Below, piece by piece: positions 1-21,105 of a stretch of DNA of 21,105 nucleotides. The stretch's first letter is position 1. Each line of letters opens with the position of its first letter. Source of the DNA: a virus (lineage: Duplodnaviria; Heunggongvirae; Uroviricota; Caudoviricetes); the IMG/VR virus record IMGVR_UViG_2657245439_000019. The stretch is one strand, 5' to 3'. Under the pieces are notes generated by a model. It was given only the letters and a program-made list of their open reading frames with translations. It did not search any database and was not told where the DNA came from. Both the position numbers and the translations under genes were made by a program.

Positions 1-981
1 TTATAACGTCACTCCGCCTTTTAGTGGATTCAGAGCGACGGCATTTTGCAGATAGTCAGGCGCAAGGTGCGCATAGGCCATCGTCTGCTGAATGCTCGCA
101 TGTCCCAGAATCTGTTGCAGTGCGATTATATTGCCCCCATTCATCATGAAATGGCTTGCGAATGTATGCCGCAGGATGTGGGTTGCCTGATTGGGTGGTA
201 TATCAGGTTTCACTCTGCGTAAAATCCCGCAAAATTTCTCATAATCAACTTTGAATAATTTGGCGCTGGCCTCCTCTTTAACTTTTTTCTCCAGTTCCTC
301 AGAAATCGGCACGATTCGCTTTTTACCGTTTTTGGTTTTCAGGAAGGTAACCCTGCAATTTGTAATCTGTGCTGGTTTTAGCGTGGCAACTTCCGTCCAT
401 CTTCCTCCGGTGCTCAGACATAAAAGCGCGACAAGTAAGTCATCACCAGCCAAAACATTTAACAGTTTTTCGATTTCTGCTTTTTCCAGGAACGTCATTT
501 CAGGGGTGGCCTCCGCCAGTGGCGGCAGTCCGTGAATTGGGTGTTGCCCGGAAAATTCATCCAATTGAATTAATTTTGTGAACATGCCGGATAATCGGTA
601 CATGTCACGGTTTATCGTTGCGGCACTGATACCATCACGTAGTCGCATGGAACGATAATCCATCAAAGCCCTTTTGCTCATCCTGCTCACTGGTATATCA
701 CCTATGCCGCTGATGGTTTTGAGTAGATGATTAAACTCTTTTGTTCCATGCTCGTGGTTTTGCCCGTGATATTTCCACCAGATGTCCAGCAACTCACTCA
801 AAGTCCGGCGGTCTGCTCGCTGGCCTCCCCATTCTTTCTGACTGGCATTGGCGATTGTGTATCGCTCAAATGCTAGTGCTTCAGCTTTTCTTTCGAATTT
901 CCTGCGGATGCGTTTTCCGTCGCGACCGCGAGGTCTAATGTCCACTTCATAGCGACCATCATCGAGCTTCTTAATTGCCAT
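1..981 (-). CDS. int: Tyrosine integrase, P2 Int family
   Basis: ORF 1..1011(-). Best start is the Met at 979-981 (MAIKKLDDGRYEVDIRP...), preceded by a GGAGGG Shine-Dalgarno. C-terminal region has the catalytic signature HILRHTFASHF...GHASIQQTMAYAHL (His-x-x-Arg and Tyr). Stop codon is at 1-3, so att should lie just left of the window. Confidence 0.9.
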   Translation of the reverse strand: MAIKKLDDGRYEVDIRPRGRDGKRIRRKFERKAEALAFERYTIANASQKEWGGQRADRRTLSELLDIWWKYHGQNHEHGTKEFNHLLKTISGIGDIPVSRMSKRALMDYRSMRLRDGISAATINRDMYRLSGMFTKLIQLDEFSGQHPIHGLPPLAEATPEMTFLEKAEIEKLLNVLAGDDLLVALLCLSTGGRWTEVATLKPAQITNCRVTFLKTKNGKKRIVPISEELEKKVKEEASAKLFKVDYEKFCGILRRVKPDIPPNQATHILRHTFASHFMMNGGNIIALQQILGHASIQQTMAYAHLAPDYLQNAVALNPLKGGVTL

Positions 982-1050
982 AAGAAAGCCCTCCGGCGCT
1001 GTATTCACCATCTTGGTAGCAAATGGTGAAAATGTAATCTTTATATAGAG

Positions 1051-1344
1051 TTAGCCAATCCTTTTCGCGGAGTGGTTGGACTCTGTTGACTCTGGCCCAA
1101 TGTGCGCGAGAGCCGGTGCGATTTGTCCTGCGTCCGGCGCGGTTTTATCTGTCATAAGCCATAGAGCATATTTTTGGAATGTGGGATGCATAGTGATTTT
1201 TAGCAAAGCTGTGCCACCGGGTTCAAAGTTTCCTCCTTCATATTTTTTAAGTGTGCTTAGCGGTAACTCTATGATTTCACAGAATTTTGATTGGCTTAGC
1301 CCTTCAGCCTCACGCAAGGCCTTAATCTTTTCGCTTAATTTCAT
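1051..1344 (-). CDS. C: Immunity repressor, P2 C type
   Basis: 97-aa ORF divergent from cox. Contains ...QIAPALAH... which I recall from P2 C. Position between int and cox matches P2 synteny. Confidence 0.8.
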   Translation of the reverse strand: MKLSEKIKALREAEGLSQSKFCEIIELPLSTLKKYEGGNFEPGGTALLKITMHPTFQKYALWLMTDKTAPDAGQIAPALAHIGPESTESNHSAKRIG

Positions 1345-1402
1345 TTGACATGGTGCCTATATAGGGACTAAATTCCCTCAAAACTGGAACCTATATAGGT
1401 TC
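1344..1402. promoter_or_regulatory. Pe/Pc switch region: candidate Pe promoter with two copies of a palindromic operator decamer
   Basis: TTGACA at 1344-1349, 18-bp spacer, TAAATT at 1368-1373. CCTATATAGG occurs at 1355-1364 and 1389-1398, flanking the -10. The second copy sits inside a perfect 18-bp palindrome GGAACCTATATAGGTTCC (1385-1402). Confidence 0.55.
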
Positions 1403-1465
1403 CATTGATTTGAGAATAAACCAGCATCTAAACGGTTTTGAGTGGTTTAGAAAGGGCTGGATCCT

Positions 1466-1753
1466 ATGAGGGTACCATATATGGACGCTGAAAATTATGT
1501 GATTCAGTATCCGCTTGATGCGGTTCATGTGGATAAATTTGCTGATTTATTAGGGAAGCCAAAGACAGCCGTCAGTGAAATGGTGAAGGCAAATAAATTA
1601 CCAATTATTGAATTGCGTGATCCTTGCAAACCGAAGGCTCGTGCCGGTGAAAAATGGGTTTTCATTCCTGAGTTTAATCGCGCTGTACGTGAGGCGTTTT
1701 ATAACCGACCGGTTGAACAGCGTGATGCATGGCTTTTGTGGATGGGGTTGTGA
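1466..1753 (+). CDS. cox: Cox-like excisionase / transcriptional switch protein
   Basis: 95-aa ORF immediately right of the C/Pe region, similar in size and position to P2 Cox. An alternative start is the Met at 1481. C-terminal ...RDAWLLWMGL resembles the P2 Cox C-terminus as I recall it. Confidence 0.7.
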   Translation: MRVPYMDAENYVIQYPLDAVHVDKFADLLGKPKTAVSEMVKANKLPIIELRDPCKPKARAGEKWVFIPEFNRAVREAFYNRPVEQRDAWLLWMGL

Positions 1754-1926
1754 TTATGAATGAGCCGCGTTGTATTGCTCAGTTATTGCGTAACGAAAGC
1801 CCCAGGGCGATTGACTTCACCATCACCCACGGTAAGGGGCGTAAGGGAATCATTATCCGCACCAAAAAACAGAGTCCGTTAAAAAAGGCTCTGACCTTTC
1901 TGAAAAGCCGGAGGGTATGGAAATGA
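1729..1926 (+). CDS. Hypothetical small early protein (P2 orf78 position)
   Basis: 65-aa ORF overlapping the cox 3' end and the B start. An alternative start is the Met at 1756. No recognisable motif. Confidence 0.35.
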   Translation: MAFVDGVVIMNEPRCIAQLLRNESPRAIDFTITHGKGRKGIIIRTKKQSPLKKALTFLKSRRVWK

Positions 1927-2423
1927 CAGTGATGACGCTCAATCTCGTTGAAAAACAGCCAGCAGCTATGCGCCGGATAATTGGCAAGCATCTTGCCGTC
2001 CCTCGCTGGCAGGATACATGTGATTATTATAATCAGATGATGGAGCGCGAACGGCTAACGGTTTGCTTTCATGCACAGTTAAAACAGCGTCACGCAACGA
2101 TGCGTTTTGAAGAAATGAACGACGTCGAACGTGAACGACTGGTTTGTGCAATTGATGAATTGCGTGGCGCATTCTCAAAACGCCGTCAGGTCGGCGCAAG
2201 TGAGTATGCATATATTAGTTTTTTAACAGTCAGTCAGCGTCGTACTTTATTTATGCATGCGGGATTGACAGAAAAAGAATTCAATCAGCCGTACTGGCGA
2301 ATTAATGAAGAATCATGTTACTGGCGTGATGCTTTATTCCGTGCATTACGTGAATTATTCAGTCTTTTTGAGTATGCACCGACAATTCTGACGTCGGTAA
2401 AACCAGAGCAATATCTGCATTAA
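1917..2423 (+). CDS. B: P2 gpB-like replication accessory protein
   Basis: 168-aa ORF after cox/orf78, same size and position as P2 B. Family assignment is from synteny and recall, not a search. Confidence 0.6.
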   Translation: MEMTVMTLNLVEKQPAAMRRIIGKHLAVPRWQDTCDYYNQMMERERLTVCFHAQLKQRHATMRFEEMNDVERERLVCAIDELRGAFSKRRQVGASEYAYISFLTVSQRRTLFMHAGLTEKEFNQPYWRINEESCYWRDALFRALRELFSLFEYAPTILTSVKPEQYLH

Positions 2424-2444
2424 ATAATTAACCAGAGTTTTTAA

Positions 2445-2473
2445 CGCACTTAATCGTGCGGGGCTTCTTTTTG
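2445..2473 (+). terminator. Weak hairpin plus T-tract between B and the next ORF (possible attenuator)
   Basis: CGCAC-TTAATC-GTGCG stem-loop (2445-2460) followed by GGGCTTCTTTTT. Stem is only 5 bp. Confidence 0.3.
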
Positions 2474-2486
2474 CCTGGAGAAAGTC

Positions 2487-2711
2487 ATGCATACAGTTTC
2501 TGAAAATCAGTGCGGTAAATACGCATTACTGCTGCAACAGGCCAGAACCGAAGCACAGGCCGACGCTGCGACGTGCTTTTCTTCTCATCTTGACGCCATG
2601 ATTCGCCACATCACAAAGGCGGAGTTATCCCGCGTGGAGATAGTTGAGCTGCTCAGTCAGGAGTCGGAAAAATTTCACAATATCGGATTGTCTCGCGGGG
2701 AGGTGCTTTGA
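2487..2711 (+). CDS. Hypothetical early protein (P2 orf80 position)
   Basis: 74-aa ORF with RBS-like GGAGAAAG upstream. Stop overlaps the next start (ATGA-type coupling). Confidence 0.5.
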
Positions 2712-3013
2712 TGTCCTGTTCTCGTTCGGTTGTATTACTGAATAACGCCTTAAAAATCGCTGTTATGGAAAATGGCGATTTGTCTCTTATTCAACTTGGT
2801 CTTGATAAAGAAAAGCGCGACATAACTGAATCTGTTATCGCGATTTATCAGAGCGAATTAAACCTCCTGTCTGATGTGATCAATTTACTTGTGAAACGCG
2901 CTGTATTTCACAGGCAAATTTCCTCAGTGGATGAACTGACAAAATTAACGACAGAACTCGCCAGCTATTGCGCTGATGAATTTAAGAAACTGAACGACAA
3001 AAGGAACTGGTAA
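2708..3013 (+). CDS. Hypothetical early protein (P2 orf81 position)
   Basis: 101-aa ORF, translationally coupled on both sides. Confidence 0.5.
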
Positions 3014-3237
3014 TGCCGGACAACGTAGATTTCATTCAGGAACAACAGGCTGAATTACTGGAGCGCCAGATTAACGCGGCAAGGGTAAAACATTGCGGTG
3101 TTTCTGCGCTGGTTTGCGAAGAGTGTGACGCGCCAATACCTGCTGCCCGTCGTGCGGCTTATCCGTCAGCCACGCGTTGTGTTTCCTGCCAGTCAGTCTT
3201 TGAAGCAAAAAACAAACATTACCGGAGAACGGCATGA
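3013..3237 (+). CDS. TraR/DksA-family C4 zinc-finger protein (P2 orf82 position)
   Basis: 74-aa ORF with Cys pairs in CEECDAPIPAARRAAYPSATRCVSCQ (CxxC...CxxC). Confidence 0.6.
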   Translation: MPDNVDFIQEQQAELLERQINAARVKHCGVSALVCEECDAPIPAARRAAYPSATRCVSCQSVFEAKNKHYRRTA

Positions 3238-3509
3238 GTATTCGTATTGAAATTGGCAAACGTTATGTCGTTACCAGTGACAGCTTTCAGTTTATTCTCC
3301 ACGAGAAAAAGAGAGCGGAAAGCGGTAAAAACGCCGGTCAGGAATGGCTGGCGGTGGTTGGTTATTACCCGAAATTAGGCCAGCTCGTTTCCGGCCTGAT
3401 GCATCACGATATTCTGACCGGAAGCGCAAAATCTTTTGCTGATTTAAACGCGCAGGTTGAGCAACTCAGCAAGCGTTGTTCAGAGGCTTTTGGCTCATAT
3501 GGCCGTTAA
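3234..3509 (+). CDS. Hypothetical early protein (P2 orf83 position)
   Basis: 91-aa ORF, coupled to the zinc-finger ORF upstream and overlapping the A start. Confidence 0.5.
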   Translation: MSIRIEIGKRYVVTSDSFQFILHEKKRAESGKNAGQEWLAVVGYYPKLGQLVSGLMHHDILTGSAKSFADLNAQVEQLSKRCSEAFGSYGR

Positions 3510-5775
3510 AGCCTCCGGGCGTTTTGTCCCTCCGTCAGCATTTACCGCAGGCACCGGTAAGGCGTTTACCGGTGCTTATGCATGGAACGCGCCACGCGAG
3601 GCTGTCGGGCGCGAAAGACCTCTTACACGTGACGAGATGCGTCAGGTGCAAGGTGTTTTATCCACGATTAACCGCCTGCCTTACTTTTTGCGCTCGCTGT
3701 TTACTTCACGCTATGACTACATCCGGCGCAATAAAAGCCCGGTGCACGGGTTTTATTTCCTCACATCTACTTTTCAGCGTCGTTTATGGCCGCGCATTGA
3801 GCGTGTGAATCAGCGCCATGAAATGAACACCGACGCGTCGTTGCTGTTTCTGGCAGAGCGTGACCACTATGCGCGCCTGCCGGGAATGAATGACAAGGAG
3901 CTGAAAAAGTTTGCCGCCCGTATCTCATCGCAGCTTTTCATGATGTATGAGGAACTCTGCGATGCATGGGTTGATGCGCATGGTGAAAAAGAATCGCTGT
4001 TTACGGATGAGGCGCAGGCTCACCTGTATGGTCATGTTGCTGGCGCTGCACGTGCTTTCAATATTTCCCCGCTCTACTGGAAAAAATACCGTAAAGGACA
4101 GATGACCACGAAGCAGGCATATTCTGCCATTGCCCGCCTGTTTAACGATGAGTGGTGGACTCATCAGCTTAAAGGCCAGCGTATGCGCTGGCATGAGGCG
4201 TTACTGATAGCTGTCGGGGAGGTCAATAAAGACCGTTCTCCTTATGCCAGTAAACACGCCATTCGTGATGTGCGTGCGCGCCGCCAGGCAAATCTGGAAT
4301 TTCTTAAATCGTGTGACCTTGAAAACAGGGAAACCGGCGAGCGCATCGACCTTATCAGTAAGGTGATGGGCAGTATTTCTAATCCTGAAATTCGCCGGAT
4401 GGAGCTGATGAACACCATTGCCGGTATTGAGCGTTACGCCGCCGCAGAGGGTGATGTGGGGATGTTTATCACGCTGACCGCGCCGTCAAAGTATCACCCG
4501 ACACGTCAGGTCGGAAAAGGCGAAAGTAAAACCGTTCAGCTTAATCACGGCTGGAACGATGAGGCATTTAATCCAAAGGATGCGCAGCGTTATCTCTGCC
4601 GTATCTGGAGCCTGATGCGCACGGCATTCAAGGATAATGATTTACAGGTCTACGGTTTGCGAGTCGTCGAGCCACACCACGACGGAACGCCGCACTGGCA
4701 TATGATGCTTTTTTGTCATCCACGCCAGCGTAACCAGATTATCGAAATCATGCGTCGCTATGCGCTCAAAGAGGATGGCGACGAAAGAGGAGCCGCGCGA
4801 AACCGTTTTCAGGCAAAACACCTTAACCGGGGCGGTGCTGCGGGATATATCGCGAAATACATTTCAAAAAACATCGACGGCTATGCACTGGATGGTCAGC
4901 TCGATAACGACACCGGCAGGCCGCTGAAAGACACTGCAGCGGCTGTTACCGCATGGGCGTCAACGTGGCGCATTCCGCAATTTAAAACGGTTGGCCTGCC
5001 GACAATGGGGGCTTACCGTGAACTACGCAAATTGCCTCGCGGCGTCAGCATTGCTGATGAGTTTGACGAGCGCGTCGAGGCTGCACGCGCCGCCGCAGAC
5101 AGTGGTGATTTTGCGCTGTATATCAGCGCGCAGGGCGGGGCAAATGTCCCGCGCGATTGTCAGACTGTCAGGGTCGCCCGTAGTCTGTCGGATGACGTTA
5201 ACGAGTACGAGGAAGAAGTCGAGAGAGTGGTCGGCATTTACGCGCCGCATCTCGGCGCGCGTCATATTCATATCACCAGAACGACGGACTGGCGCATTGT
5301 GCCGAAAGTTCCGGTCGTTGAGCCTTTGACTTTAAAAAGCGGCATCGCCGCGCCTCGGAGTCCTGTCAATAACTGTGGAAAGCTCACCGGTGGTGATACT
5401 TCGTTACCGGCTCCCACACCTTCTGAGCACGCCGCAGCAGTGCTTAATCTGGTAGATGACGGTGTTATCGAATGGAGTGACCCGGAGGTCGTGATGGCGC
5501 TCAGGGGCGCATTAAAACACGGACTGAGAACACCAAATCGTCAGCAAAGAAACGGAATCCCGTTAAAACCGCATGAAATTGCACCATCTGCCAGACTGAC
5601 CAGGTCTGAACGATTGCAAATTACCCGTATCCGCGTTGACCTCGCTCAGAACGGTATCAGGCCGCAACGATGGGAGCTTGAGGCGCTGGCGCGTGGCGCG
5701 ACCGTAAATTATGACGGGAAAAAATTCACGTATCCGGTTGCTGATGAGTGGCCGGGGTTCTCGTTACCCATTTGA
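3499..5775 (+). CDS. A: Replication initiation endonuclease gpA (rolling-circle initiator)
   Basis: ORF 3457..5775. Chosen start is the Met at 3499 (MAVKASGRFVPP...). HUH-type motif HWHMM is encoded at 4692-4706 and a YxxxY motif (AGYIAKYISK) at about 4840-4870. Long stretches match my recollection of P2 gpA. Confidence 0.9.
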   Translation: MAVKASGRFVPPSAFTAGTGKAFTGAYAWNAPREAVGRERPLTRDEMRQVQGVLSTINRLPYFLRSLFTSRYDYIRRNKSPVHGFYFLTSTFQRRLWPRIERVNQRHEMNTDASLLFLAERDHYARLPGMNDKELKKFAARISSQLFMMYEELCDAWVDAHGEKESLFTDEAQAHLYGHVAGAARAFNISPLYWKKYRKGQMTTKQAYSAIARLFNDEWWTHQLKGQRMRWHEALLIAVGEVNKDRSPYASKHAIRDVRARRQANLEFLKSCDLENRETGERIDLISKVMGSISNPEIRRMELMNTIAGIERYAAAEGDVGMFITLTAPSKYHPTRQVGKGESKTVQLNHGWNDEAFNPKDAQRYLCRIWSLMRTAFKDNDLQVYGLRVVEPHHDGTPHWHMMLFCHPRQRNQIIEIMRRYALKEDGDERGAARNRFQAKHLNRGGAAGYIAKYISKNIDGYALDGQLDNDTGRPLKDTAAAVTAWASTWRIPQFKTVGLPTMGAYRELRKLPRGVSIADEFDERVEAARAAADSGDFALYISAQGGANVPRDCQTVRVARSLSDDVNEYEEEVERVVGIYAPHLGARHIHITRTTDWRIVPKVPVVEPLTLKSGIAAPRSPVNNCGKLTGGDTSLPAPTPSEHAAAVLNLVDDGVIEWSDPEVVMALRGALKHGLRTPNRQQRNGIPLKPHEIAPSARLTRSERLQITRIRVDLAQNGIRPQRWELEALARGATVNYDGKKFTYPVADEWPGFSLPI

Positions 5776-5990
5776 GTAAAAACACAACGTGATTTGATAT
5801 GGCATTGAATGGCTTATGCGGAGCAGTTATGGGGCAGCAGAAGGTCAATAGCATGCTGAATTAGAAGGCTAAATGCTATTGAGTGACTAGCATGTCGGTA
5901 AGGACAGCCGTTTGATCCGGGTCATAAAAGGCCATCCATTTAGTCTAATAAAATCATTGCGGGTAACCTTATGTCGACGCATAATTCGTC

Positions 5991-6005
5991 TTGAGCGAAG
6001 TCTTG
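5991..6005. repeat. 15-bp exact direct repeat, copy 1 (TTGAGCGAAGTCTTG)
   Basis: Identical 15-mer recurs at 6255-6269. The two copies bracket the bidirectional terminator and the small minus-strand ORF. Confidence 0.6.
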
Positions 6006-6035
6006 TCAGTCTTTCATCGTATTGATGATGGGCGC

Positions 6036-6069
6036 AAAAAAACCACCCTGGCAGGTGGTTTTTTTGTTT
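6036..6069. terminator. Bidirectional rho-independent terminator
   Basis: A-run (6036-6042), stem AACCACC (6041-6047), loop CTGGCA, stem GGTGGTT (6054-6060), then T-run (6059-6065). Symmetric A/T flanks allow termination on both strands. Confidence 0.65.
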
Positions 6070-6077
6070 GAAGCATA

Positions 6078-6191
6078 TTAAAGCATAATGCTGACATTGA
6101 TATTACTGACGTTTACTGACAAACCACTCGGACTACCGTTTGGATAGCCAAAGAGGGCCAGAACGAGAATGCAGTAATAGCATTTCTTCAT
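6078..6191 (-). CDS. Hypothetical small protein, 37 aa (MKKCYYCILVLALFGYPNGSPSGLSVNVSNINVSIML)
   Basis: ATG at 6189-6191 (minus) with AGGAGG Shine-Dalgarno 4 nt upstream. Stop at 6078-6080, followed by the bidirectional terminator. Hydrophobic N-terminal segment. An in-frame upstream ATG at 6344 would give 88 aa but has no RBS. Confidence 0.3.
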   Translation of the reverse strand: MKKCYYCILVLALFGYPNGSPSGLSVNVSNINVSIML

Positions 6192-6254
6192 ATTGCCTCC
6201 TGTAAGTAGAGGGCAACTTCCACCGGTATATGCGCTTCTTAGGTGGAATGACTT

Positions 6255-6269
6255 TTGAGCGAAGTCTTG
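6255..6269. repeat. 15-bp exact direct repeat, copy 2 (TTGAGCGAAGTCTTG)
   Basis: Identical to 5991-6005. Lies in the 5' leader region of the small minus-strand ORF. Confidence 0.6.
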
Positions 6270-6669
6270 CCCTGAAATAATGCTCTGTTTAAACGCAAAG
6301 TGATTTGGCATATCACCGAACAGAGAGCCGGAAAAACACAACATATAGTATGTCGTTGTTTCTAGACATACATTCTATGTTGTGTAACAAGGGCTTTGCA
6401 TTAAACATGTTTGAGATTTTATTGATGTAGCTCAAAGTAAAAAACAGAGACTACGGATGATAAGGTCTTGAAAGCAATGTAAATTTTTTAAGGTTGCCAA
6501 TTGCTTAAAAATGTACAGTTGCGGTATGGCGTACTTAAAAAGCTATGCATGCAACAAGTGAATGTTTTTGCATGCGTTGGGGATGTCCGTTCAGGCTGCG
6601 TGCGGTCAGGACTGGTGCGGATCCATAGTATCTATGCAACTGCATTAAAACCGCCCCGTGAAGCGGGCG

Positions 6670-6688
6670 GGCGAGGCGGGGAAAGCAC
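6670..6688. other. cos cohesive-end sequence (P2/P4 type)
   Basis: GGCGAGGCGGGGAAAGCAC at 6670-6688 matches the 19-nt P2 cohesive end as I remember it. It sits between the A-distal cargo and Q, where cos lies in a P2 prophage, with GC-rich dyad CCGCCCCGTGAAGCGGGCGG just upstream. Confidence 0.6.
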
Positions 6689-6830
6689 TGCGCGCTGGCG
6701 GTGGTGCTGATTTTATTTTTTCAGCGTCTCAGCGCGTCGTAATGGCGTTTAGATTGTGCGCCGGGGCGTTGGTTTGTCTGCGGGCTGTTTTGCGCGGTGG
6801 TGAGCGTGTGAGGGCGTGATGACGGGGTGT

Positions 6831-6852
6831 AAAAAAGCCGCCCGCAGGCGGC
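6831..6852 (-). terminator. Rho-independent terminator downstream of Q (minus strand)
   Basis: On the minus strand, stem GCCGCC, loop TGCG, stem GGCGGC, then TTTTTT, directly after the Q stop codon. Confidence 0.55.
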
Positions 6853-6857
6853 GATGT

Positions 6858-7892
6858 TCAGCCGTTGTCAGTGTCCAGTGAGTAGTTTTTAAAGCGGATG
6901 ACCTCCTGACCGAGCCAGCCGTTTATTTCCCGAATCCTGTCCTGTAACGGGATAAGCTCATTGCGGACAAAGACCTTTGCCACTTTCTCAATATCACCCA
7001 GCGACCCGACGTTCTCCGGCTTGCCGCCCATCAACTGAAAGGGGATGCGGTGCGCGTCCAGCAGGTCTGCGGCGCTGGCTTTTTTGATATTAAAAAAATC
7101 GTCCTTCGTTGCCACTTCACTGAGCGGGATAATTTTAATGCCGTCGGCTTTCCCCTGCGGGGCATAGAGAAACAGATTTTTAAAGTTATTGCGGCCTTTT
7201 GACTTAACCATGTTTTCGCGGAGCATTTCGATATCGTTGCGATCCTGCACGGCATCAGTGACGTACATGATGTATCCGGCATGTGCGCCGTTTTCGTAAT
7301 ACTTGCGGCGGAACAGCGTGGCCGACTCATTCAGCCAGGCAGAGTTAAGGGCGCTGAGATATTCCGGCAGGCCGTACAGCTCCTGATTAATATCAGGCTC
7401 CAGCAGGTGAAACACGGAGCCGGGCGCGAAAGCTGTCGGCTCGTTGAAGGACGGCACCCACCAGTAAACATCCTCCTCCACGCCACGACGGGTATATTTG
7501 GCCGGTGAGGTTTCCAGTCTGATGACCTTACCGGTGGTGCTGTAACGCTTTTCCAGAAACGCATTACCGAACACCAGAAAATCCAGCACAAAACGGCTGA
7601 AATCCTGCTGGGAAAGCCACGGGTGCGGGATAAACGTTGAAGCCAGAATATTACGTTTGACGTAAATCGGTGAACTGTGATGCACGGCAGCACGCAGACT
7701 TTTTGCCAGACCGGTAAAGCTGACCGGCGGCTCATACCATCTGCCGTTACTGATGCATTCGACGTAATCCAGAATGTCACGGCGGTCGAGTACCGGCACC
7801 GGCTCGCCAAAGGTGAATGCCTCCATTTTCGGGGCGCTGGCGGTCATTGTTTTTGCCGCAGGTTGCGGTGTTTTCCCTTTTTTCTTGCTCAT
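6858..7892 (-). CDS. Q: Portal protein gpQ
   Basis: 344-aa ORF starting MSKKKGKTPQPAAKTMTA..., which matches P2 Q as I recall it. Start ATG overlaps the P stop (ATGA). Confidence 0.9.
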   Translation of the reverse strand: MSKKKGKTPQPAAKTMTASAPKMEAFTFGEPVPVLDRRDILDYVECISNGRWYEPPVSFTGLAKSLRAAVHHSSPIYVKRNILASTFIPHPWLSQQDFSRFVLDFLVFGNAFLEKRYSTTGKVIRLETSPAKYTRRGVEEDVYWWVPSFNEPTAFAPGSVFHLLEPDINQELYGLPEYLSALNSAWLNESATLFRRKYYENGAHAGYIMYVTDAVQDRNDIEMLRENMVKSKGRNNFKNLFLYAPQGKADGIKIIPLSEVATKDDFFNIKKASAADLLDAHRIPFQLMGGKPENVGSLGDIEKVAKVFVRNELIPLQDRIREINGWLGQEVIRFKNYSLDTDNG

Positions 7893-18601: not shown

Positions 18602-20112
18602 CAGTGAAATACTACGCCATTCTGACTAATCAGGGCGCAGCACGGCTGGCTAACGCGACGATGCTCGGCAGTAAGCTGAATCTGACGCAAATGGCCGTTG
18701 GTGATGCGAATGGTGTCTTGCCGACACCAGACCCGGCACAGACAAAACTGATTAACCAGAAACGCATCGCGCCGCTGAATCTTCTGAGTGTTGACCCGAA
18801 CAACCAGAGCCAGATTATTGCGGAGCAAATCATCCCTGAGAACGAGGGCGGATTCTGGATCCGTGAGATTGGGCTTTATGATGATGAAGGCGTACTCATT
18901 GCGGTGGCGAACTGCCCGGAAACGTACAAACCGCAGTTACAGGAAGGCAGTGGTCGTACCCAGACTATCCGCATGATTCTGGTTGTCACGAATACCGAAG
19001 CCATCACGCTGAAAATCGACCCGTCGGTGGTACTGGCGACCCGTAAATACGTGGATGATGAAGTCCTGGAATTAAGGCTGTATGTGGATGACCAGATGAG
19101 AAACCACATTGCCGCACAGGATCCTCATACCCAGTATGCACAGAAACATAATCCGACATTTACCGGAGAACCAAAAGCGCCGACGCCTGCCGCAGGGAAT
19201 AACACCACGCGGATTGCGACCACTGAGCTTGTTCAGGCCGCTATTACCGCTCTGATTAACGGCGCGCCAGCCACGCTGGACACACTGAAAGAAATTGCCG
19301 CAGCCATTAACAATGACCCGAAATTCAGCACCACCATTAACAATGCGCTGGCACTGAAAGCGCCGCTGTCGAGTCCCGCACTTACCGGAACGCCAACAGC
19401 ACCTACTGCGGCACAGTCGGTCAACAATACACAGATTGCCACCACGGCTTTTGTGAAATCAGCAATTGCGGCAATGGTGGGTTCTGCCCCTGCGGCACTG
19501 GATACACTGAATGAACTGGCGGCGGCGCTGGGGAATGACCCTAACTTTTCAACAACAGTGCTTAATGCACTGGCAGGCAAACAACCGCTGGACAATACGC
19601 TTACTAATTTGAGTGGAAAGGATGTGGCTGGTCTTCTCGCATACCTTGGTTTGGGAGAAGGTTCTGCGTTGCCTGTTGGCGTACCAGTTCCTTGGCCTTC
19701 AGCTACGCCGCCGACAGGCTGGCTGAAATGCAACGGGGCTGCTTTTTCGGCTGAAGAATACCCGGAGCTGGCAAAGGCTTACCCGACAAATAAATTGCCT
19801 GATTTACGCGGTGAATTTATTCGTGGCTGGGATGACGGACGTGGAGTGGATGCCGGGCGACAATTATTATCTTCACAGGGGGATGCAATAAGAAATATTG
19901 AGGGATTCGCAGATGGCGGGATCGGCATGTCTTTTGATGCAATCAGAGGGGCTTTTTACGATGCAGGAACACGATCAGCGACAATGGCGAATAACACAAC
20001 TGCTATAGGCAAAACCGATGACCTTGGATTCGACGCCTCTCGTGTCGTGCCAACAGCTAATGAAAACCGTCCACGTAACATCGCCTTTAATTATATTGTG
20101 AGGGCTGCATAA
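18598..20112 (+). CDS. H: Tail fibre protein gpH, with a probable switchable C-terminal domain
   Basis: 504-aa ORF. N-terminus MTVKYYAILTNQGAARLANA... is typical of P2 H / Mu S fibres. Internal repeated motif NNT-x-IATT...LDTL...NDP-x-FSTT. Hin/Gin-like crossover site at codons ~346-354. Confidence 0.85.
   Translation: MTVKYYAILTNQGAARLANATMLGSKLNLTQMAVGDANGVLPTPDPAQTKLINQKRIAPLNLLSVDPNNQSQIIAEQIIPENEGGFWIREIGLYDDEGVLIAVANCPETYKPQLQEGSGRTQTIRMILVVTNTEAITLKIDPSVVLATRKYVDDEVLELRLYVDDQMRNHIAAQDPHTQYAQKHNPTFTGEPKAPTPAAGNNTTRIATTELVQAAITALINGAPATLDTLKEIAAAINNDPKFSTTINNALALKAPLSSPALTGTPTAPTAAQSVNNTQIATTAFVKSAIAAMVGSAPAALDTLNELAAALGNDPNFSTTVLNALAGKQPLDNTLTNLSGKDVAGLLAYLGLGEGSALPVGVPVPWPSATPPTGWLKCNGAAFSAEEYPELAKAYPTNKLPDLRGEFIRGWDDGRGVDAGRQLLSSQGDAIRNIEGFADGGIGMSFDAIRGAFYDAGTRSATMANNTTAIGKTDDLGFDASRVVPTANENRPRNIAFNYIVRAA
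19634..19659. other. Candidate DNA-invertase crossover site (hix/gix-like) inside H
   Basis: TTCTCGCATACCTTGGTTTGGGAGAA is a 26-bp imperfect palindrome (TTCTC...GAGAA arms, ACC-TT-GGT core). It matches hixR (TTATCAAAAACCTTGGTTTTCAAGAA, from memory) at 19 of 26 positions. Confidence 0.5.
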
Positions 20113-20705
20113 TGAAACCTGTTTTTGATGAAAATGGGCTGGCTACAGTACCGGGTAATATGCGTTGTTTTTATTATGAGGCAGTTACGTATGAATATAC
20201 TGGCTGGTCTGATGAATATATTAATACTGGCGTAAGTATGCCCGCTTGTTCCACTGGTATTGACCCGGGCGAATACATTCCGGGAAGAGTGGCAGTATTT
20301 ACGGGTAAGGGATGGAGCCATGAAGAAGACCATCGCAATGAGACTGTTTACTCAACAGAAAATGGCGCAGCTGTTACAGTGGATTATATCGGTGCCATCA
20401 AAGACGGTTATGTCACGCTTTCACCGTTAACGCCATACGATAAATGGGATGGTGAGAAATGGGTGACGGATACCGAGGCACAGCATAGCGCCGCACTAGA
20501 CGCGGCAGAAGCACAGCGCCAGTCACTGATTGATGCAGCAATGGCTTCCATTAGTCTGATTCAGCTGAAATTACAGGCCGGACGGAAACTGACTCAGGCA
20601 GAAACAACCCGACTTAACGCCGTGCTGGATTACATTGACGCGGTGACGGCAACAGATACCAGCACCGCGCCGGATGTCATCTGGCCTGAACTGCCGGAGG
20701 CGTAG
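20112..20705 (+). CDS. G: Tail fibre assembly protein gpG (Tfa)
   Basis: 197-aa ORF coupled to H (TAATG). C-terminus ...[16 protein letters not shown] is the conserved Tfa tail. Confidence 0.8.
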
Positions 20706-21105
20706 GCCATTCAATATCGGGTGCTGTTGAAGTATCAACACGCATCAGCAGCACACGGTATTTCTTCCATTCGGTGAGAGTTGAAGTTTCTTCATCAGTT
20801 GCGATATCAGCATCAACAGCATCCTGACGCCAGGATATTTCACTGTCAGCTTTTTCCCGTAATTGGGATTTTTTAACTTCAGCAATAGCTATTAATTCCT
20901 TTTTGGTCGGCTGAGGAATATCTATCAGTGCTGGTTTTCCATTCAGTGTTCCAATCTGTTTTCCTGGTGGAATATCCATAAATAACTTTTTATGTTCTTC
21001 CTCACTGACTATTACACCATCATCAGGCCACAGACCTGATGCCTCAAATTTTTCTTTCTCCGATATGGGGAAAAAGCCATTTGCTTTAGCGCTCCATACG
21101 TACAT
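20677..21105 (-). CDS. Second, inverted tail fibre assembly protein (alternative Tfa); start at or beyond the window edge
   Basis: Minus-strand ORF ending ...[31 protein letters not shown], close to the lambda Tfa C-terminus as I recall it. It converges on G and overlaps it by 29 bp. The first ATG is at 21103-21105, so the true start may lie outside the window. Confidence 0.75.

Follow-up and report, generated by a model that had tools for sequence, protein, structure and literature searches.

Background

Several type I toxin-antitoxin (TA) systems rely on a separate small RNA (sRNA) for the control of the toxin messenger RNA (mRNA). In tisB/istR-1, shoB/ohsC, zorO/orzO and dinQ/agrB, the complementarity of sRNA and mRNA covers some 15-30 nt at a standby-type site far upstream of the AUG, the primary mRNA is translationally inert, and tandem duplication occurs. 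In the Bacillus systems txpA/RatA and bsrG/SR4, the 3' overlap of the two RNAs is the main interaction. The closest known design for the locus reported here is timP/TimR (ryfA/ryfB) of Salmonella and Escherichia coli. We analyzed a stretch of 21,105 nt from a tailed virus (IMG/VR record IMGVR_UViG_2657245439_000019; hereafter the window), a P2-like prophage, and within it the slot between gene A and cos (5776-6669; 894 nt from the A stop codon at 5775 to cos). About 60 % of this slot (~5945-6490, ~0.55 kb) is a conserved cassette of two predicted convergent transcription units with one common bidirectional terminator. On balance the cassette is probably a mobile type I TA-like module and a candidate for a new family.

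Like timP, the cassette encodes a peptide of ~40 amino acids (aa) whose start is positively charged and whose hydrophobic signal-anchor N-terminus contains CxC (MKIRCFCIVLIV at the start of TimP, MKKCYYCILVLA or MNRVCLCILVLT at that of the cassette peptide). As in timP, the 5' untranslated region (UTR) is long and structured, about 145-175 nt, and like TimR, a separate sRNA of ~80-100 nt is predicted to pair with its 5' end tens of nucleotides upstream of the Shine-Dalgarno sequence (SD), not at the SD. The arrangement differs: the TimR gene is located upstream and divergent (in strain K-12 ~400 nt upstream on the opposite strand), whereas the cassette sRNA gene is located downstream and convergent and shares the terminator. 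Also, timPR is a chromosomal core locus, while the cassette resides on mobile elements with an nrdDG-derived promoter. Membership in the TimP family was rejected. The model NF040796 gave no match to the cassette peptide at E values up to 10 (E. coli TimP scores 86.8 bits) and hhalign yielded a probability of 10.6 %, over 11 residues only. TimP was not among the matches of an exhaustive phmmer search with the cassette peptide, and the Rfam model RyfA (RF00126) had no match in 5500-7000 at E values up to 1.

With the tisB/shoB/zorO/dinQ class, the cassette has in common the location of the target site, a predicted inert mRNA and tandem duplication. In that class, however, the sRNA gene is divergent and upstream, and the toxins are single amphipathic transmembrane helices, unlike the cassette. 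tisB and dinQ are LexA-controlled, whereas control by FNR, perhaps also by NrdR, is predicted for the cassette; a LexA box CTGT-N8-ACAG was not seen on inspection of 6336-6490. Hok/Sok is unlike the cassette, which has no Pfam Hok match, no conserved overlapping leader reading frame and no sRNA cis-antisense to the mRNA 5' end. The peptide has no similarity to the enterobacterial toxin families in Pfam and NCBIfam. Convergent genes with 3'-overlapping RNAs are shared with txpA/RatA and bsrG/SR4: both cassette RNAs are predicted to end in the terminator hairpin 6035-6066, thus their 3' ends are complementary. In the cassette, however, the selected pairing is that of the sRNA 5' end with the mRNA 5' UTR and the overlap is limited to the terminator; the Bacillus systems belong to another phylum and are not homologous. 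What sets the cassette apart is its convergent layout with a shared terminator and a promoter taken over from nrdDG.

Results and discussion

Distribution of the cassette

An earlier note, made from the sequence of the window alone, had described the slot as an AT-rich interval of less than 0.9 kb without an open reading frame (ORF) over about 90 codons. It had listed a bidirectional terminator, a tiny minus-strand ORF with a strong ribosome-binding site, exact 15-bp direct repeats and several dyad symmetries, and had considered either a decayed hotspot or a small system based on a peptide or RNA. The description was accurate. The G+C content is 0.38-0.44 across 5700-6600 versus 0.51-0.61 in A and Q/P, and the longest ORF has 88 aa (6078-6344, minus strand), being an upstream extension of the 37-codon ORF. 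Terminator arms with A-run and T-run, ATG and GGAGG are in place (Table 1), as is the exact 15-nt repeat TTGAGCGAAGTCTTG at 5991-6005 and 6255-6269, and most of the dyads are now assignable to FNR-like boxes, NrdR-like boxes or RNA stems. Of the two alternatives, the small peptide or RNA system has good support: ORF, terminator and repeat belong to one conserved cassette of peptide and sRNA that is under purifying selection. Two aspects go beyond the note: the repeat encodes a complementarity between the RNAs of two convergent transcription units, and the right half, AT-rich and rich in dyads, represents a copied nrdDG promoter.

Many complete E. coli genomes contain the entire 894-nt slot (97-100 % identity), with a blank annotation at this place. 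A derivative of E. coli W (KO11FL/LY180) has a slot with 99.7 % identity. P2-like prophages of clade 1, which includes the window, carry a cassette 99 % identical to that of the window. In clade 2, e.g., Salmonella phage MET_P1_103_31, 'P2DC1' and E. coli E24377A, the region from 5776 to ~6540 is conserved at ~85 % identity and followed by extra genes. Distant-mode BLASTN with 5940-6330 as query located the cassette core, unannotated, on ~390 Klebsiella pneumoniae IncFIB/IncFII plasmids (~74 % identity) and on an Enterobacter hormaechei plasmid (77.5 %). A pattern of seed plus terminator retrieved a copy with 72 % identity from an N15-like phage-plasmid, located between repA and the protelomerase gene. 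Peptides with 56-59 % identity were obtained by exhaustive phmmer search from Kluyvera georgiana and a metagenome contig; both have the full cassette, adjoining an inovirus secretin and in Kluyvera also Zot. A first contig pattern scan for the cassette had no match; the second had a single match, a Citrobacter freundii copy. One metagenome contig contains two paralogous cassettes 2.9 kb apart (3331-3950 and 6253-6870), with peptides and sRNA stems that have diverged from one another. Such tandem duplication, the residence on plasmids and prophages and the failure of gene callers to detect the gene constitute a family behavior typical of type I TA loci.

Among 5,426 complete E. coli genomes, ~155 (~3 %) contain the cassette, in comparison to 1,682 with a P2-like A gene. 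Thus the cassette is neither common P2 backbone nor debris, which contradicts the possibility, raised in the earlier note, that the slot is ordinary DNA of most P2-like phages. The BLASTN comparison proposed there revealed a slot conserved as a unit, with defense-type cargo beside the cassette in relatives. The family is almost never annotated: PGAP left the cassette blank in the E. coli genomes examined, phmmer detected only seven peptide clusters among 1.84 billion representatives, and a padded-query protein search with the peptide yielded two clusters only. In K. georgiana ATCC 51603 the peptide is annotated merely as 'hypothetical protein M989_02339'. In NZ_CP039403.1 the locus tags skip one value across the slot (E4311_RS01165 to E4311_RS01175); a feature may once have been called here and dropped later. 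On plasmid pJ53-KPC_Vir, a Klebsiella-type hybrid (1-6570 of the locus), the cassette has an IS110 element on one side and an annotated DinQ-type type I toxin on the other, and a nucleotidyltransferase/ThiF/JAB-MPN cluster and a 3'-5' exonuclease adjoin it; this may be a small defense or TA island.

A decayed or empty hotspot, with ORF, repeat and dyads as functionless relics of recombination, is very improbable and has been largely refuted by the comparative data. The slot holds no protein cargo, though relatives have defense-like genes there, the RefSeq E. coli records obtained by BLAST are unannotated at this place, and small intergenic remnants in P2/P4 defense loci were regarded as recombination debris in a recent survey (PMC13586616). 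Decay is at odds with an ORF under purifying selection, with promoters whose hexamers are invariant while the spacers vary, with a covarying sRNA stem plus a maintained intermolecular duplex, and with the fact that plasmids, N15-like phages and inoviruses have preserved the cassette (56-74 % identity).

The peptide and its mRNA

The ORF has 37 codons throughout and 38 in Kluyvera, and a frameshift was present in no variant. Between lineages, the ratio of nonsynonymous to synonymous substitution rates (dN/dS) is 0.1-0.4. The peptides follow the pattern M..(x3)CILVL.LFGYP.GS.SG.S..VS with 18 invariant columns, and the ORF in the Klebsiella and Enterobacter plasmid copies is 69-79 % identical to the window. 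Judged by these alignments, the peptide ORF is real and under purifying selection. The N-terminal hydrophobic segment reaches a Kyte-Doolittle hydropathy of 3.0-3.2; it resembles a signal anchor, and insertion into the inner membrane is predicted. Searches of Pfam, NCBIfam, PHROGs, PADLOC and PDB gave no useful match for the peptide or for the 88-aa and 69-aa ORFs, and a literature search with the peptide and seed sequences returned no relevant mention. The 88-aa ORF was rejected as a true gene: only its last 37 codons, with their own SD, are conserved, and the upstream part overlaps conserved UTR structures.

The predicted mRNA has ~330 nt (6364 to ~6030) and the 37-residue peptide as its only conserved ORF. 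Its promoter has the form TGCAAA-17-TA[GA]AAT; the hexamers are conserved and the spacer varies in sequence but not in length in 62 of the 62 loci that are complete across the region, the set used for both promoters. The predicted fold of the mRNA is much more stable than that of shuffled sequences (z = -5.0). By prediction, the SD (6196-6200) is largely base-paired to a C-rich stretch upstream of it (6207-6215), where one compensatory pair, U-A to C-G, was observed; partition-function prediction gave the SD an unpaired probability of 0.02-0.29 in all lineages. The SD region of the Klebsiella and Enterobacter plasmid copies has 82-91 % identity to the window. At 6283-6326, the nested hairpin has an identity of 83-98 % among lineages with 74 % elsewhere (83-91 % in the Klebsiella and Enterobacter plasmids), and it includes one series from A-U via G-U to G-C. 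An imperfect 30-nt direct repeat (73 % identity) connects 5780-5809, just past the A stop codon, with 6291-6320 within this hairpin; the likeness is weaker in clade 2 and may be due to chance.

The sRNA and its pairing with the mRNA

The plus-strand promoter TTGCG[GA]-17-CATAAT is conserved in the same manner, with constant hexamers and a spacer of variable sequence and fixed length (62/62). The predicted sRNA folds with z-scores of -2.5 to -3.9. In stem-loop 1, five of seven pairs have compensatory double changes and 98.6 % of the cells are paired, a result matched by none of 500 column shuffles. The sequence of this stem-loop is merely 33-41 % identical between phage and Klebsiella copies, and four further lineages have different sequences again. 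Stem-loop 1 and the short spacers 6074-6077 and 6270-6282 are the variable parts, with 11-67 % identity of the Klebsiella and Enterobacter plasmid copies to the window. The many G-U pairs in the stem would be A-C mismatches on the other strand, thus the structure belongs to the plus-strand transcript. The terminator is 90-100 % conserved in all lineages (90-93 % in the Klebsiella and Enterobacter plasmid copies). It is common to the sRNA and the peptide mRNA and probably also serves the early (A) operon. An Rfam scan of 5500-7000 at E values up to 1 gave only sub-threshold matches (RNAI, Phe_leader), for which the generic terminator is responsible. A promoter-like site CTGACA-17-AATTAT at 5981-6009 on the minus strand is antisense to the sRNA start and directed back towards the 3' end of A. 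Four of the six lineages checked retain this site and clade 2 has lost it; it probably arises from the near-palindromic -10 region as a side effect.

Both copies of the 15-nt repeat have the same orientation in the DNA, but are predicted to be transcribed in opposite directions. Hence the 5' end of the sRNA is complementary to the 5' UTR of the mRNA, and this complementarity accounts for the direct repeat. A direct repeat of at least 15 nt occurred in 2 of 1000 dinucleotide-preserving shuffles of the slot. In the window, the duplex extends to 17 nt with one U-G pair. The predicted duplex has 14-18 bp in each lineage, and the distance from target to AUG is constant at 63-66 nt. Across lineages the repeat copies are 82-94 % identical with nearly invariant 13-nt cores; the seed copies of the Klebsiella and Enterobacter plasmid lineages have 88-94 % identity to the window. 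Eleven distinct pairs of sRNA and target from 11 lineages were compared, and the 14-bp duplex core was paired in 154 of 154 cells. In nine cells the pair is not the commonest one. Wobbles (G-U or U-G) account for eight of them, with the polarity expected when a plus-strand sRNA meets a minus-strand mRNA; in the ninth, C-G has been exchanged for U-A, and the window has the U-G intermediate. None is broken. The number of independent events behind these changes is at least five or six, and none of them conflicts with pairing. The support for a maintained duplex comes from the direction of the changes; it is statistically modest and agrees with the other evidence.

The repeats could instead act at the DNA level, as sites of a regulator or recombinase or as the ends of a mobile unit, with the plus-strand 'sRNA' being the 3' end of the A operon. 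Their direct orientation and the position around ORF and terminator would suit such a role. Furthermore, there is no separate terminator for A ahead of 6035, hence early transcription must continue across repeat copy 1. We nevertheless consider a DNA-level role highly unlikely: copy 1 starts exactly at the predicted transcript start behind its own conserved promoter, and every difference between copies yields a G-U pair in the duplex, one fully compensated, a rule that a protein binding site does not need. Nor do the repeats mark the ends of the cassette, whose homology continues well beyond them in both directions.

A promoter derived from nrdDG

With the N15-type copy as query, an unexpected match was obtained in the Salmonella nrdD-treC intergenic region, 126 nt long and 80 % identical. 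Alignment with the K-12 sequence upstream of nrdD delimited the homology to ~-125 to ~+30; further downstream the sequences are unrelated. The window (minus strand, TACTTTGAGCTACATCAATAAAATCTCAAACATGTTTAATGCAAAGCCC) can be compared directly with a published nrdDG fragment (TACTTTGAGCTACATCAAAAAAAGCTCAAACATCCTTGATGCAAAGCAC, PMC10425943); clade 2 is nearly identical to E. coli. Over ~150 bp of homologous sequence, the -10 hexamer and FNR sites 1 and 2 are equally spaced in both promoters. The nrdDG promoter drives nrdD, the cassette copy the 37-aa peptide gene. The 54-mer nrdDG fragment and the positions of the FNR sites have been published (PMC10425943), and the FNR site at -64.5 is described as necessary and sufficient for nrdDG activation in the passage of that article citing Roca et al. 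2008. Assuming the nrdDG distance from -10 hexamer to start, all lineages have FNR-like boxes exactly at -64.5 and -33.5.

Two NrdR-like boxes flank the -10 hexamer and start of the window promoter and together form the 10-bp dyad of the earlier note. Boxes with at least 13/16 matches are expected by chance at 0.016 per 340 nt. In nrdDG the boxes are 31 bp apart from center to center, in clade 2 32 bp. The nrdDG boxes are displaced in P2-type copies and absent from plasmid-type copies: at a threshold of at least 12/16, none was detected in the Klebsiella and Enterobacter copies, leaving the P2-type copies only. The offsets differ from nrdDG and the plasmid copies lack the boxes, so NrdR control is merely possible and the box assignment tentative. 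Inspection of the conserved blocks for LexA, CRP, IHF and P2 Ogr-type sites revealed no convincing match.

Table 1 Predicted features of the slot and its surroundings in the window
Feature	Position	Strand	Remarks
Integrase	1-1011	minus	
C-type repressor	1051-1344	minus	
Cox	1466-1753		
A (gpA, 772 aa)	3457-5775		
Spacer, A stop to cassette	5776-5944		P2-type copies only; without conserved ORF
Predicted sRNA promoter	-35 TTGCGG 5957-5962; -10 CATAAT 5980-5985	plus	17-nt spacer; start ~5992
Predicted ~80-nt sRNA (candidate antitoxin)	~5992-6073 (feature 5991-6073)	plus	Seed 5991-6007; stem-loop 1 6009-6033; terminator with U-tail
Bidirectional intrinsic terminator	Arms 6035-6047 and 6054-6066	both	13-bp perfect arms; A7/T7 flanks
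37-codon ORF (stop included)	ATG at 6191, stop 6080-6078	minus	Small peptide with N-terminal hydrophobic anchor, MKKCYYCILVLALFGYPNGSPSGLSVNVSNINVSIML
Shine-Dalgarno GGAGG	6200-6196	minus	4 nt before ATG
5'-UTR hairpin CCACC/GGTGG	6220-6246	minus	A-U to G-C compensatory change in other lineages
Predicted sRNA-seed target	6255-6271	minus	mRNA 5' UTR, 63 nt upstream of AUG; repeat copy 2
Nested 5'-UTR hairpin	6283-6326	minus	CUCUGUU...AACAGAG around GGUGAU...AUCACU
nrdDG-homologous segment	6336-6490	minus	~-125 to ~+30 of E. coli/Salmonella nrdDG promoter
NrdR-like 16-mers (tentative)	6336-6351 (14/16); 6370-6385 (13/16)		Flank -10 and start; consensus after Rodionov and Gelfand 2005
Predicted peptide mRNA promoter	-35-like TGCAAA 6400-6395; -10 TAGAAT 6377-6372	minus	Start ~6364; homologous to nrdDG core promoter
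FNR box, site 1	6391-6404		Center -33.5; degraded in window, <7/10
FNR box, site 2	6422-6435, TTGAGCTACATCAA	minus	Center -64.5; identical to E. coli nrdDG; 9/10
cos-proximal packaging region with 19-nt cohesive end	6540-6688		Ordinary P2 sequence, outside cassette
Q	6858-7892	minus	

Proposed function

In silico, the locus combines two features of the type I TA class: a small selected membrane-type peptide and an sRNA of the same locus that pairs with its mRNA. In the proposed mechanism, the nrdDG-derived, FNR-dependent promoter would drive the structured peptide mRNA of ~330 nt, and a sigma-70-type promoter on the plus strand the sRNA of ~80 nt. The sRNA would keep the peptide mRNA untranslated or unstable, either by blocking a standby or loading site or by triggering cleavage, and the SD would additionally be held in a hairpin. 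Peptide would be made once the mRNA exceeds the sRNA. Possible triggers are FNR activation in anoxia, NrdR release under deoxynucleoside triphosphate (dNTP) stress, loss of the element or a shut-off of transcription. The peptide would then insert into the inner membrane and harm or arrest the cell. The likely benefit would be a stabilization of the carrier, be it prophage, plasmid or phage-plasmid, and possibly an abortive exclusion of other phages.

Several observations weigh against this TA interpretation. Both transcription starts were derived from promoter matches and the homology to nrdDG. The hydrophobic stretch of the peptide comprises just ~13 residues, with a polar, beta-like tail behind it, and is thus unlike the classic pore-forming type I toxins with a helix of ~20 residues and a charged C-terminus. 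Covariation in the mRNA 5' UTR is weak, with three compensatory pairs and no significance against shuffles. The whole-helix shuffle test of the sRNA:mRNA duplex was not significant either, because the core is almost invariant. When the target site was blocked in a simple thermodynamic test, a change in SD accessibility was not shown. FNR site 1 is degraded in the window, and the NrdR-like boxes are offset there, with 34 bp from center to center. Finally, peptide- or seed-derived patterns served to retrieve several lineages, which biases the conservation estimates for these two parts; the Klebsiella and Enterobacter copies were found by plain BLASTN. A structural switch, in which sRNA binding frees the C-rich anti-SD to close on the SD, was considered and rejected: the a:b:c complementarities exist, but SD accessibility did not change consistently with the target blocked.

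The main rival explanation is a regulated accessory gene. The 37-aa product would be a non-toxic envelope protein for anoxia or nucleotide stress, e.g., modulating a transporter or an enzyme, its level tuned by the sRNA. An nrdDG-type FNR-dependent promoter implies a programmed induction in a common condition, which is odd for a pure killer, and the signal-anchor-like N-terminus with a polar tail is not a classic pore-forming helix. TimP, the product of the closest known system, is tolerated at native levels: endogenous TimP expression after timR deletion permitted growth (PMC7667032). This role is possible, though we hold it to be doubtful. It does not readily explain why the cassette is found almost only on mobile elements, of four unrelated kinds and once in tandem, a spread reminiscent of addiction or defense. 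Toxic products typically have their translation restrained in several layers, as is predicted here with the sequestered SD, the long structured UTR and the dedicated sRNA.

The type I TA interpretation can be extended, although we regard the extension in all its parts as unlikely. The piracy of the nrdDG promoter would wire toxin transcription to oxygen via FNR; P2-type copies would in addition respond to the dNTP/ATP state via NrdR. The cassette would be a minimal 0.55-kb addiction or abortive-infection device of prophages, plasmids, phage-plasmids and inoviruses, and the smallest, RNA-based occupant of the P2 hotspot. It would fire when a phage drains the dNTP pool or shuts off transcription; in a host shut-off, the short-lived sRNA would be lost.

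Neighborhood of the cassette

The gene order of the window is that of a P2-like prophage: integrase, C-type repressor, Cox, early genes, A, slot, cos, Q, P, followed by head, lysis and tail genes. The 19-nt cohesive end GGCGAGGCGGGGAAAGCAC (6670-6688) is the same as the right end of P2 (NC_001895). On the other side of the cassette, the spacer behind A has ~80 % identity when the two P2 clades are compared and is missing in the plasmid homologues; its 21-codon ORF (5799-5864) is interrupted in clade 2. The cos-proximal region 6540-6688 is present at 93-100 % identity in many P2-like phages without the cassette. A GC-rich hairpin followed by TTTT (6651-6670, minus strand) adjoins the cohesive end and resembles a terminator for the Q/P strand; Q has its own terminator at 6837-6852.

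In P2 (NC_001895) the interval between A and cos carries orf91, tin and old, in agreement with the earlier note. Like tin/old and other hotspot cargo, the cassette is located next to cos, AT-rich and horizontally acquired. Unlike such cargo, it has no protein of the size known from defense systems, and it co-occurs with defense-type cargo in relatives; a PADLOC search placed it in no known defense family. Cargo was found at two sites: between cassette and cos, e.g., a CapP/RmrA-like protein with an unknown gene (3637-4788 in one locus), and between cos and Q, e.g., a PDC-M29-like AAA ATPase pair (4114-5861 in one locus). The 'cos hotspot' thus has two insertion points. In clade 1 the cassette always abuts cos, and in the window the side between cos and Q, 170 nt, is empty too, so that the cassette is the sole occupant of the region. 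The earlier note had placed a module in the slot instead of tin/old. The cargo position is indeed empty here, but with cargo standing beside the cassette in relatives, the cassette is a semi-conserved left-hand neighbor of the cargo site and not a replacement of cargo. Two genes of 486 nt each, one past the cassette in a Salmonella phage, the other past the cassette in an Enterobacter plasmid, have no similarity to each other. A P2-like phage with both main hotspots free of genes was not found in a survey of 2026 (PMC13586616).

At the far end of the window, the tail-fiber assembly gene G (20112-20705, plus strand) is followed by a second tail-fiber assembly gene on the opposite strand (20677-21105, minus strand; Pfam Caudo_TAP, E = 1e-33), and the window ends with the start codon of this second gene. 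The opposed arrangement suggests an alternative or invertible tail-fiber cassette.

Conclusions

If the TA interpretation is correct, the cassette represents a new enterobacterial family of type I TA systems, or else of sRNA-controlled small membrane proteins, that annotation pipelines have missed almost fully. The family resides on clinically important IncF resistance and virulence plasmids of Klebsiella and in three kinds of temperate phages, and the stability of plasmids and prophages could be affected. A P2 defense hotspot that is scored as empty in protein-centered surveys could hold a functional cassette of RNA and peptide. The capture of the host housekeeping promoter nrdDG by a mobile toxin cassette would be a case of regulatory piracy, and it predicts an oxygen-dependent behavior in the gut.

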